From: an uncultured Methanomicrobiaceae archaeon
Lineage (GTDB): Archaea; Halobacteriota; Methanomicrobia; Methanomicrobiales; Methanoculleaceae
NCBI GenBank assembly: GCA_963826525.1
Contig: CAWGXH010000004.1
Location: 1,536,001-1,600,000, forward strand
Length of the DNA: 64,000 bases
Reading direction: 5' to 3'
Shown: one piece after another, positions 48,091 to 49,963 of the stretch
Numbering within the stretch: the stretch's first letter is position 1
Layout: every line of letters starts with the position of its first letter
Notes under the pieces: generated by a model
Databases searched by the model: none
The model's input: only the letters and a program-made list of their open reading frames with translations
What the model was told of the DNA's origin: nothing
Program-made: the position numbers and the translations under genes

Positions 48091-49619
48091 TCACTCTTCA
48101 GCCCTCGATACCCGGCAGACGAGGTTGATGGCGTTGACCATCGCCTCGACGGATGCGAGAACGATGTCGTCGCTGGAGCCGCTAGCCTCAAAGACTCTGC
48201 CCCGTGCATCTTCGACGGCGATAGTGACATGACCGAGGGCATCCGTCCCGCCTGATATCGCATCGATATGGAACTCCTTGAGGTGGATGGGGGCGGGAAT
48301 TATGCCGAGGATCGCTTTGACCGCGGCGTCGACGGGGCCGTTTCCGATGCTCGAGAAGCTGTGCTCTTCTCCGTTGACGGTTGCCCGTATACTCGCGGTC
48401 GGGATGAGGTGATTCCCGGTCATGATGGCGATCTCCTGCAGGTCGATGACCTTCGCATCGGCCCGGATCTTCATGACGCTCTCGGCGATCTCGTAGAGGT
48501 CGGCGTCGGTGACCCGTTTACCCTTACTTGCGATGATCTTCACCCTGTGTACGATCTCGTCGAGCTGGGCATCTTCCGGTTCGAGGTGCACCTCGGTGAG
48601 CATCTGCCGCACGGCGTGGCGGCCTGCGTGTTTGCCGAGTTTCAGCCTCCGCCGGTGGCCGACCATCTCGGGTGTCATGATCCCGGGTTCGAAGGTATCG
48701 GAGCGGGTGATGACGCCGTGCGAGTGGATCCCGCTCTCGTGGGCGAATGCGTTCTCCCCAACGATCGGCTGGATGGGCGGTATCTGGATGCCGGCGTAGC
48801 GTGAGACCAGTCGGGAGGTCTCGACAAGGCTTGTGGTGGCGATGCCGGTATTGATGCCGTAGATGGATTCGAGGGTCATCACCGTCTGCGCGAGATCCGC
48901 GTTTCCTGCCCGCTCACCGATGCCGTTGACCGTCACCTGCACCTGAGAGGCACCACCCTCCACCGCGGCGATGGTGTTCGCCACCGCGAGACCGAAGTCG
49001 TTGTGGCAGTGGACGTCGATGGGACAGCGGATCTCCCCTGCGATCCGGGTCACAGCTCCCTCATCGCTGTCGGCGTGATGACGCCGACCGTGTCGGGGAC
49101 GTTGATGACGGTTGCACCGCCCTCGACGGCCGCGTGGTAGACTTCGATTAAGTAGTCCCAGTCCGTCCTCGTTGCATCCATCGCCGAGAACATGCACTGG
49201 CCGAGGTGCTCGCGGACGTAGCCGACGATCGAGCGGGTGATCTCGAGCACCTCCTCGCGGCTCTTCCGGATAGTATGCTCCCGCTGGATGTCGGATGTCG
49301 GGATGAAGACATGGACCATGTCCACATCGCAGTCGAGGCAGACGTCTACATCGGCCTGGATGGATCGCGCCAGTCCGCAGACGTTCGCGGAGAGCGGCAG
49401 CTCGCGGATGGCTTTGACGATCTCTCTCTCGGCTCCGGAGGAAGCCGGGAATCCTGCTTCGATGACATGGACTCCTATGTCGGAGATCTGCTGTGCAATA
49501 CCGAGCTTCTGCTCCCGTGTGAACGAGATGCCCGGGGTCTGTTCACCATCCCTGAGGGTGGTGTCGAAAACAGTAATGTCCTTGTTCGCCTGGCTAGCGA
49601 CGAAGAAGACAGTACGCAT
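48091..49619 (-). CDS. leuA: 2-isopropylmalate/citramalate synthase family enzyme with C-terminal regulatory domain (internal frameshift ~49053; true start uncertain)
   Basis: DTTLRDGEQ, EAGFP, HCHNDFG, GIGERAGN, HESGIH, GNGPVDA. LeuA versus CimA cannot be settled by eye. Confidence 0.88.
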
Positions 49620-49656
49620 CAGCGTACGCGTCTGCGTCGGCGTTCATGCGTTTCAT
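49594..49656 (-). CDS. Putative leader peptide MKRMNADADAYADAYCLLRR overlapping the leuA 5' end
   Basis: ATG 49656 to TAG 49594. Start lies 29 nt below the first base of the TATA box; the only Leu codons are tandem CTT CTT. Confidence 0.55.
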   Translation of the reverse strand: MKRMNADADAYADAYCLLRR

Positions 49657-49675
49657 TCATAACCATTGGGGGCCC

Positions 49676-49685
49676 ATATATATAA
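49676..49685 (-). promoter_or_regulatory. TATA box for the leader-leuA transcript
   Basis: TTATATATAT on the minus strand; typical archaeal spacing predicts a TSS at ~49656. Confidence 0.65.
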
Positions 49686-49769
49686 TGGCGATGGCGGTTC
49701 CGGGGCAGATTGCGGGAGTAGAATCGACATATTTAATAACAACGCCTTCATACATTAGTAGCGCAGTGC

Positions 49770-49876
49770 CCCGCCTTAACTCAGACTGGTAGAGTGCGCG
49801 GCTGTAGTATAGAATCGCCGTTTCGGCGAACTGCGCGGCTACCGCGATGTCCCCGGTTCGAATCCGGGAGGCGGGA
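49770..49876 (+). tRNA. tRNA-Tyr(GTA) with 33-nt intron (49808-49840)
   Basis: CCCGCCT/AGGCGGG acceptor stem. BHB motif: CUGU/GCGG helix with AGU and CUA bulges at the canonical 37/38 position. Confidence 0.95.
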
Positions 49877-49890
49877 TCTCAATCATTGGT

Positions 49891-49963
49891 GCCCAGGTAG
49901 TGTAGTGGCCTATCATGACGGCCTGTCACGCCGTCGACACGGATTCGAATTCCGTCCTGGGCG
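49891..49963 (+). tRNA. tRNA-Asp(GTC)
   Basis: GCCCAGG/CCTGGGC acceptor stem; ACGGC-CTGTCAC-GCCGT anticodon arm. Confidence 0.97.

Follow-up and report, generated by a model that had tools for sequence, protein, structure and literature searches.

Leader reading frames of archaeal leuA and cimA genes point to a probable +1 frameshift that senses charged tRNA

How is translation of an enzyme initiated when the reading frame that starts in front of it is the wrong one? This question is raised by a gene for a LeuA-type 2-isopropylmalate synthase on the minus strand of a 64,000-nucleotide stretch of DNA (hereafter the window) from an uncultured Methanomicrobiaceae archaeon (contig CAWGXH010000004.1, positions 1,536,001 to 1,600,000). 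The beginning of the gene is overlapped by a short leader open reading frame (ORF) of 20 codons in another register, which contains two tandem leucine codons shortly before its stop codon. A first-pass annotation of the window had interpreted the tandem codons as a site at which ribosomes short of charged leucine tRNA shift by +1 into the enzyme frame. In the analysis described here, programmed +1 ribosomal frameshifting that senses charged tRNA is found to be the probable explanation, and the interpretation has gained support from comparative evidence across the order Methanomicrobiales.

According to the proposed mechanism, the leuA mRNA would begin, probably leaderless, at ATG 49656, and ribosomes would first translate the 20-codon ORF one base out of register with the enzyme. 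With the first CUU in the P site and the second CUU awaiting Leu-tRNA, the peptidyl-tRNA would slip from CUU to UUC, and synthesis would continue to a LeuA protein with the trans-frame N terminus ..DAYCL-FVASQANK... Prompt decoding of the second CUU would lead to termination at the UAG two codons on, and LeuA would not be made. The lower the level of charged tRNA-Leu, the more enzyme would be produced, which would constitute feedback control. In other genomes an NUU codon would occupy the P site, and either a slip (CUU to UUC, or UUU to UUU or UUC) would occur or the +1 codon would be read directly. The citramalate synthase of the isoleucine branch would employ the same device with an isoleucine codon in the A site. 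The anatomy of the leader, its conservation, the frame relation and the codon specific to each paralog, from which this mechanism is derived, were observed directly in this analysis.

The positions that the first-pass annotation had assigned to the TATA box, the leader ORF, the CTT CTT pair, the stop codon and the in-frame ATG all proved correct (Table 1). The leader ORF does lie outside the enzyme frame, and the enzyme frame (..VFDTTLRDGEQ..) is its +1 frame on the minus strand. A single +1 step at CTTC makes the window read continuously from the leader ATG until an assembly gap in the gene body. At the candidate shift site, the P-site CUU could re-pair on UUC, the A-site CUU encodes leucine, and the A-site codon in the +1 frame is UUC for phenylalanine. 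The genome has a single gene each for tRNA-Leu(GAG) and tRNA-Phe(GAA), and CUU would be read by tRNA-Leu(GAG) via wobble pairing. In archaea, the centre of the TATA box is situated about 26-27 nt before the start of transcription, and the leader ORF is predicted to start at, or adjoining, the 5' end of the transcript. The sole nearby start of the enzyme frame is ATG 49619 within the leader, and the frame is closed by a TGA eight codons upstream of it. No GGAGG or GGTG precedes this ATG, in agreement with the annotation, which had noted the lack of a sequence resembling a Shine-Dalgarno (SD) element. The leader overlaps the coding sequence of the enzyme in a different register and leaves no space for a terminator. 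The fold of the window leader was not significant (z -1.41), and an Rfam search (E<=1) at six loci returned only tRNAs and a 16S fragment, with nothing at the leaders.

In the third frame, 4 nt upstream of the leader ATG, a second ATG (49660) begins an ORF of 13 codons, the TGA of which overlaps ATG 49619 (UGAUG), a classic coupling arrangement. It was found only in the window and in the locus L002 from the same genus. Its distance from the TATA box (~22 nt) fits less well than that of ATG 49656, and ATG 49660 may therefore be outside the transcript.

In the window, the lack of a single base at ~49054 divides the enzyme gene into two ORFs. Both pieces match NCBIfam NF002085 and other LeuA models. 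On NF002085 (cut-off 517), the full-length orthologs reach 676-682 bits, compared with 592 for the second paralog, and genes of the window type are named 2-isopropylmalate synthase in JGI, NCBI and UniRef. The assignment to LeuA or CimA is thus one by family-model scores and database annotation. A broken gene invites the suspicion that the leader offset, too, is an artefact, with an indel having misplaced ATG 49656 as the true start. The assembly does contain indels, since besides the one at ~49054 the cimA-like gene of the same genome is likewise broken into two, and the genome is 87.6% complete. The first-pass annotation had warned of such errors; the warning was justified for the gene body and not for the leader. 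The leader is base-for-base identical in L002, whose ortholog is an uninterrupted 517-codon frame. In a 546x contig of a ~91%-identical relative, which covers 48905-49760, indels are confined to 49053, 49673/4 and 49683, with none within 49594-49656. The metagenome contigs X1-X3 cover fragments only. From the identity in L002 and the indel-free contig it follows that the leader offset is real and the frameshift in the body a defect of assembly or strain; the deletion is regarded as an assembly error or strain mutation separate from the recoding signal. As the same offset recurs in all other genomes examined, an artefact that displaced the start is virtually ruled out.

Conservation was assessed within the Methanomicrobiales. 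Orthologous 5' regions were obtained from 39 of 41 searched genomes, one of the remaining two being without an ortholog match and the other having its match at a contig edge; with two members from a phylum sample, the total was again 41. All 41 loci share one design consisting of a TATA box, an ATG in the -1 register, a short ORF, the pair [C/U]UU-CUU and an early stop. In 37 of the 40 unique loci, 25-28 nt (mode 26) separate the TATA centre from the leader ATG, a spacing consistent with the leaderless start at ATG 49656 that the annotation had suggested. Leaders comprise 10-21 codons and stop 1-7 codons past the site, and the enzyme frame is already open upstream of the site. This open frame is free of ATG, GTG and TTG before DTTLRDGEQ in 23 of the 41 loci. 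At L031 the enzyme frame is closed by a TGA a few codons ahead of the site, with no start behind it, and at L005, reading from the leader ATG with one +1 step at CTTC yields a protein of 525 residues. The comparative prediction of the annotation, namely a conserved out-of-frame leader and a non-conserved in-frame ATG, was hence borne out. The position of ATG 49619 is occupied by AAG in 18 genomes of the neighbouring genus and by CAG in L004. Throughout the window family (f1), the in-frame ATG is present exactly where the leader encodes Asp-Ala (GAU G..) and not Glu-Ala (GAA G..), and it looks like a by-product of a conservative change in the leader.

The pattern of substitutions changes at the same point. 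Among 19 sequences of the window family, variable sites upstream are distributed 6/4/10 over leader-frame codon positions 1/2/3, and downstream 4/4/19 over those of the enzyme frame, which means that the phase of substitution switches at the site.

The strongest argument for frameshifting by a tRNA-charging sensor, as far as it can be drawn from comparison, is codon specificity. Three paralogs are present per genome. The paralog of ~505 residues is a D-/(R)-citramalate synthase according to JGI and CimA according to UniRef, and it carries a leader of its own, ATG AGT GA(T/G) TG(T/C) TTT ATT with a stop 1-3 codons on. This leader is shared by every one of the 19 unique Methanomicrobiales loci and by the genome of the window. 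In this genome, GGTGA is positioned 10 nt before the cimA-like leader ATG, and a +1 step is needed to enter the enzyme frame. GGUG is found 8-11 nt upstream of the cimA leader ATG in 17 of 18 cases, and 6 of the 19 Methanomicrobiales loci are without even an in-frame GTG. Methanosarcina-like cimA genes read ..AGG AAU CGU UUU AUU, and another family has tandem AUU AUU. The third paralog (~390-430 residues) has a plain SD and ATG in 4/4 loci.

When 192 unique cassette-bearing loci (loci with such a leader and site) were typed by BLAST with a single reference each for LeuA and CimA, the predicted A-site codon was leucine in 149 of 150 LeuA-type loci (CUU 80, UUA 47, CUA 21, UUG 1), the exception L139 being a truncated gene typed on 52 versus 39 bits. 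It was isoleucine in 42 of 42 CimA-type loci (AUU 33, AUC 9). A phenylalanine codon was never found at the A site of the 192 typed loci, though detection permitted it. The P-site codons of the 150 LeuA loci are mostly CTT (76) and TTT (72), with re-pairing of CUU on UUC and of UUU on UUC or UUU. Where the enzyme frame encodes Phe-Phe, the first codon is UUC in 80/80 loci and the second varies (UUC 51, UUU 28); the enzyme-frame leucine codon of cimA is the rare UUA in 42/42. The invariant UUC is required for CUU in the leader, and these two regularities speak for a constraint in the leader frame. The isoleucine codon of the cimA cassette gives strong, if indirect, support to the proposed sensing of leucine.

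In three genomes of family f4 (G027, at C1:1599154-1600504, G032 and G037; loci L039, L043 and L105), leuA and cimA are adjacent and divergent, ~250-290 bp apart, and the leucine leader and the isoleucine leader face apart across one intergenic region.

The cassette extends beyond the order. An even sample of the phylum comprised 121 genomes, 101 of them with a match; families f9, f12, f20 and f23 were left out, and Halobacteria-like families gave no match at the threshold used. Of 36 loci examined outside the order, 31 have the cassette (f7 9/9, f14 8/8, f10 7/7, f18 2/2, f11 1/1, f19 1/1, f24 1/1, and f16 2/2 as a GUU-CUA variant), and the other five start at an ordinary in-frame ATG without a leader (two in f8, one in f15 and two in f17). 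Taken over the order and the other orders, 72 of 77 unique LeuA loci have homologous leaders of 6-21 codons. AT-rich lineages carry CG(U/C) UUU UUA at the site, with leucine still encoded in the A site by another of its codons, and their enzyme frame often has UGA immediately ahead of GGG AUC. A separate sample of family f4 had the cassette in 29 of 30 loci.

A pattern scan with one genome per species and a free spacer (16-46 nt) detected at least 119 stretches, a lower bound also for the taxonomic range. All of the 80 matches listed sit in the register that needs +1. By record title, the matches include Methanoregula, Methanolinea, Methanofollis, Methanocalculus, Methanothrix/Methanosaeta, Methanoperedens, Methanohalophilus, Methanococcoides, Methanolobus, Methanomethylovorans and Methanimicrococcus, together with several Bathyarchaeia, one Methanomassiliicoccales and one Hodarchaeota. 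Methanothrix-type leuA leaders were also seen in L184 and L195, on contigs of 2.3 and 1.9 kb from metagenome-assembled genomes titled Caldisericota and Chlamydiia, which are probably mis-binned archaeal DNA. In the Bathyarchaeia loci L134 and L164, a second, similar stretch, GTG AGG GAT CA(T/A) TGG, stands in the same frame upstream of the leader ATG GGG GAT CG(C/T) TTT ATC and may, judging by its sequence, be a duplicated cassette.

The sequence in front of the site was examined for elements that could stimulate a shift. Outside f1 and f4, the site is preceded by 10 nt that hardly vary and follow the type (A/G)G(A/G)GG(A)AU(C/U)G(C/U). The 16S rRNA of the window's own genome ends in ..GGAUCACCUCCU. 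For GAGGGAUCG-type elements in f3, f5, f7, f10 and f14, pairing with this 3' tail reaches -11 to -13 kcal/mol, the duplex ending 2 nt before the P-site codon. Pairing of -10 kcal/mol or stronger was obtained for 42% of 168 sites versus 3% of 3360 gene-body windows, in a set that was partly selected by a pattern containing GGGA. In the bacterial gene prfB, a duplex directly behind the ribosome, formed with rRNA or inside the mRNA itself, promotes +1 slippage. Family f4 lacks the anti-SD element and has instead a hairpin of 6 bp with a 5-nt loop, ending 7 nt before the site. In it, 92.8% of cells are paired, a value reached by 0/500 shuffles and compared with 20-53% in slid controls, and compensatory changes occur at two pairs (GC<->AU and AU<->UA). 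The candidate stimulators appear interchangeable from the sequences, with anti-SD pairing in most lineages and an RNA hairpin in others. The f4 hairpin region also contains correlated residues of the leader peptide, V-T..V-A versus V-A..A-A (L273-L302, 26 nt before the shift site).

If the enzyme frame is entered by a shift, many genes should lack a start codon of their own, and this was investigated for all typed loci. No ATG, GTG or TTG occurs in the open enzyme frame before DTTLRDGEQ in 39 of the 72 cassette-bearing LeuA loci of the order and phylum samples; across all typed loci an in-frame start is missing in 69 of 150 LeuA and 21 of 42 CimA genes. A leader-frame ATG is present in 149 of the 150 LeuA loci, and the leader-frame stop comes 1-10 codons past the A-site codon. 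Database entries assign N termini such as MKRTVFF (CTG in the DNA), LRGIVFF (TTG in the DNA) and VSVLF.., and others begin at GTG or at a far-upstream ATG. The trans-frame N terminus was present in 0/24 database protein matches, all of which cover only residues ~17-40 of the query. Should the frameshift be real, the annotated N termini would be systematically wrong, hundreds of database entries would have to be corrected, and the CTG and TTG starts that gene callers choose for leuA-type genes would be explained.

Could the short ORF sense leucine without recoding? LeuA would then start at an in-frame codon (ATG 49619 in the window; CTG, TTG, GTG or AUY elsewhere), access to which is altered by a ribosome paused on the leader, as in bacterial translational attenuators. 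Leaderless polycysteine short ORFs of mycobacteria act as translational attenuators, as described in the available text of bioRxiv 10.1101/834739, and the CTG and TTG starts in databases conform to this explanation. So do the window and 10 other loci of the order, where an ATG, GTG or TTG stands in frame 4-5 codons ahead of the site. In f10, f11 and f18, an in-frame ATG follows past the leader, 24-27 nt before DTT, and by analogy with the mycobacterial polycysteine ORFs the leader may act there as a separate upstream ORF. Yet about half of the cassette-bearing genes have no canonical in-frame start at all, and at several loci GGG AUC is immediately preceded by a stop in the enzyme frame. Presence of the in-frame ATG alternates with synonymous or conservative leader changes (GAU/GAC, GAU/GAA), a ribosome paused on CUU would cover ATG 49619, 11 nt upstream, and so block it rather than expose it, and the fold of the window leader is not significant. 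Sensing without recoding is consequently considered unlikely. A third way into the enzyme frame would be transcriptional slippage on a T-rich run, by which part of the mRNA is brought into frame. Runs of T5-T6 are indeed found at the site outside the order, e.g. CGT TTT TTA. However, the window and all 41 loci of the order have CTTCTT or TTTCTT and no long homopolymer, and slippage leaves the amino-acid-specific codon unexplained, making it a very improbable source of the enzyme.

A different explanation accepts an obligatory +1 shift and dispenses with the amino-acid sensor or places the shift elsewhere. The shift could be constitutive and efficient, e.g. from a P-site NGG to GGN three codons upstream, with the leucine and isoleucine codons as by-products of enzyme-frame Phe-Phe/Tyr and Leu-Phe. 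The enzyme frame does read a conserved G-I-(V/A)-F-(F/Y) across the cassette, which the Hodarchaeota gene L175 translates normally from an SD and ATG; leader-frame residues swap among R/C/Y and among D/N/Y; and most lineages other than f1 and f4 have NGG before GAU, AAU or UAU. But NGG is absent in the window family, in f4 and in the cimA genes of Methanomicrobiales (AUG AGU/ACA GAU), which are still startless. The fixed first UUC of the Phe-Phe loci and the fixed UUA of cimA likewise oppose codons that arise as by-products. A single-step haplotype network over the three codons before the site gave a mixed picture, with 14 synonymous and 12 non-synonymous edges in the leader frame, 4 and 22 in the enzyme frame, and variation at positions 0 and -3 of the kind expected of enzyme-frame wobble sites. 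Position -1 has the most frequent tolerated change (13 edges), which leaves the leader-frame amino acid unaltered, and the A-site codon showed zero single-step variation. In AlphaFold 2 models of 40 database LeuA proteins, the MRGIVFF segment has a predicted local distance difference test score (pLDDT) below 50 and no secondary structure, a weak indication from modelling that the peptide is not structurally needed. A shift that does not sense an amino acid, or that happens elsewhere, is accordingly judged distinctly unlikely.

Several observations nevertheless weigh against a frameshift that senses charged tRNA at NUU. The in-frame ATG 49619 means that in the genome of the window a frameshift is not strictly required, and the same type of start at the 11 of 41 order loci, as well as the downstream ATG of f10, f11 and f18, counts in the same direction. 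The conserved G-I-(V/A)-F-(F/Y), together with wobble variation in the enzyme frame (six edges at position 0 and three at position -3), implies that the shift could be located further upstream, e.g. at NGG_N. In cimA, P-site re-pairing is poor (UUU to UUA, AUU to UUA). With 15.6% of the leucine codons of the window's own genome (CUC 53%), CUU does not count as rare. In the window family the SD-like pairing is weak (-1.8 to -4.8 kcal/mol), and its possible hairpin, similar in most loci of the family, has an invariant 3' arm, so that covariation is uninformative and the hairpin is a candidate only. The genomes are related, and all counts given here describe conservation and not independent events. 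No RNA run was listed among the sequencing runs with the locus, and the DNA runs have it in small shares (0.06-0.13).

The site resembles that of prfB in several respects. In both cases a short upstream frame ends soon after the site, and the P-site CUU that slips +1 in prfB would do so here (prfB is also treated in the review PMC5009743). An element complementary to the anti-SD sequence is situated a few nucleotides upstream in most of the lineages studied here, slow decoding in the A site would favour the shift as it does in prfB, and the product would likewise feed back on its own synthesis; the L021 ortholog even reads CUU CUU UGA C. The proposed device differs in that the slow A-site codon would be a sense codon read by an aminoacyl-tRNA, and not a stop codon read by the product of the gene. 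The quantity sensed would be an amino acid made by the pathway, the site is within 6-20 codons of the predicted mRNA 5' end, the genes are archaeal, and the window family has no SD-like element. The leader peptides of bacterial leu, ilv, thr, his and trp operons are comparable in having an ORF with codons of the end product; ribosome speed is the sensor there and would be so here. Their output is transcription termination via alternative hairpins, whereas here it would be a change of reading frame; no terminator or antiterminator hairpins were found between leader and gene in the window, where the two overlap. Another relative in logic is the A site left vacant by scarce aminoacyl-tRNA, which lets a P-site tRNA slip +1 at hungry codons of E. 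coli and at CUU-AGG-C of yeast Ty1, with leucine on CUU and phenylalanine on UUU as examples. These are laboratory phenomena or a retrotransposon device, in contrast to a homeostatic sensor on a biosynthetic gene. 'Hungry' frameshifting is mentioned in the available text of PMC5009743 and PMC8211752.

The mycobacterial polycysteine ORFs share with the mechanism proposed here a leaderless, amino-acid-specific sensor for genes that metabolise the amino acid in question and one logic at several loci (a 'ribulon'). In the mycobacterial case, according to the available text of bioRxiv 10.1101/834739, the stalled ribosome unmasks the ribosome-binding site of a separate downstream gene, whereas here about half of the genes are startless. 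Known archaeal recoding consists of a -1 shift in fucA of Saccharolobus, tail genes of haloviruses and Mg-chelatase candidates, as far as covered by the available text of PMC8211752 and PMC5009743, and it differs from the present case in direction, genes and logic. A search for the terms isopropylmalate synthase and citramalate synthase gave 0 occurrences in the available text of these two reviews. In the main text of a Methanosarcina mazei ribosome profiling study (PMC11456600), 'frameshift' and 'leuA' had 0 occurrences; its supplementary tables of upstream ORFs may list the leader. No description of a frameshift or a leader in archaeal leuA or cimA came up in the literature search, and no archaeal counterpart of bacterial attenuation was met in the searches or in the available text of the two recoding reviews.

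If correct, the mechanism would be the first natural programmed frameshift that senses an amino acid and the first widespread +1 frameshift in cellular archaeal genes, as well as an archaeal counterpart of bacterial attenuation. To our knowledge, translational control of amino-acid biosynthesis in archaea is largely unknown. The design would combine the autoregulatory logic of prfB and antizyme with leader-peptide attenuation, and it would add a sense-codon, metabolite-linked case to the few autoregulatory frameshifts (release factor 2, antizyme). It would amount to a portable sensor of ~20 nt that turns tRNA charging into enzyme output, for which the isoleucine and leucine cassettes in one genome provide a built-in specificity control. 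The chances appear evenly balanced for a broader reading, in which many archaea (Methanomicrobiales, Methanosarcinales, Methanotrichales, Methanoperedens and Bathyarchaeia) would set synthesis of the first committed enzyme of the leucine or isoleucine branch by such a decoding-based sensor, assembled from a leader of few codons, a slippery NUU and one end-product codon.

Table 1. Features of the leuA locus in the window, with the cimA-like leader of the same genome
Feature	Position	Strand	Remarks
TATA box TTATATATAT	49676..49685	minus	centre ~25-26 nt 5' of ATG 49656
Leader ORF, 20 codons + TAG, MKRMNADADAYADAYCLLRR*	49594..49656	minus	-1 register relative to enzyme
Candidate shift site CUU CUU C	49602..49608	minus	tandem CTT CTT at 49608-49603
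Leader stop UAG	49594..49596	minus	2 codons 3' of second CUU
Rival in-frame ATG (gives MRTVFF..)	49617..49619	minus	within leader ORF, 3 codons (9 nt) before CUU CUU
Possible hairpin GUACGC-UGAU-GCGUAC	49612..49627	minus	ends 3 nt before P-site codon; candidate, by reading of the sequence
LeuA-type 2-isopropylmalate synthase coding sequence, +1 frame	48091..49607	minus	broken by one missing base ~49054
Enzyme ORFs	49050-49619 and 48091-49197	minus	
One-base deletion in gene body	49053..49054		alignment to L002 and to the relative's contig, with the base inserted behind 49053
13-codon ORF MNETHERRRRRVR* from ATG 49660	49619-49660	minus	third frame
tRNA gene, 107 nt	49770-49876	plus	divergent from leuA
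tRNA-Asp(GTC) gene	49891-49963	plus	divergent from leuA
Own-genome cimA-like leader ATG AGT GAT TGT TTT ATT GGG TGA (MSDCFIG*)	contig C5 ~285834-285950	minus	

Other genes with such a leader were also sought. A crude scan of the window's own genome for a TATA box, an ATG, a short ORF and a long startless +1 or -1 ORF returned 10 candidates, and the four that were inspected were unconvincing. The pattern RGGGATYGYNTT had 72 matches in five genomes versus 16 for the reversed control; among 30 inspected matches, just the three leuA/cimA leaders agreed with the design, the rest being ordinary coding sequence for G-I-V-F, e.g. in a permease. Next to leuA in the window are two divergent tRNA genes. 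The one closer to the leader was matched by Rfam and missed by ARAGORN, and with its length it probably contains an intron; the other is a tRNA-Asp gene.

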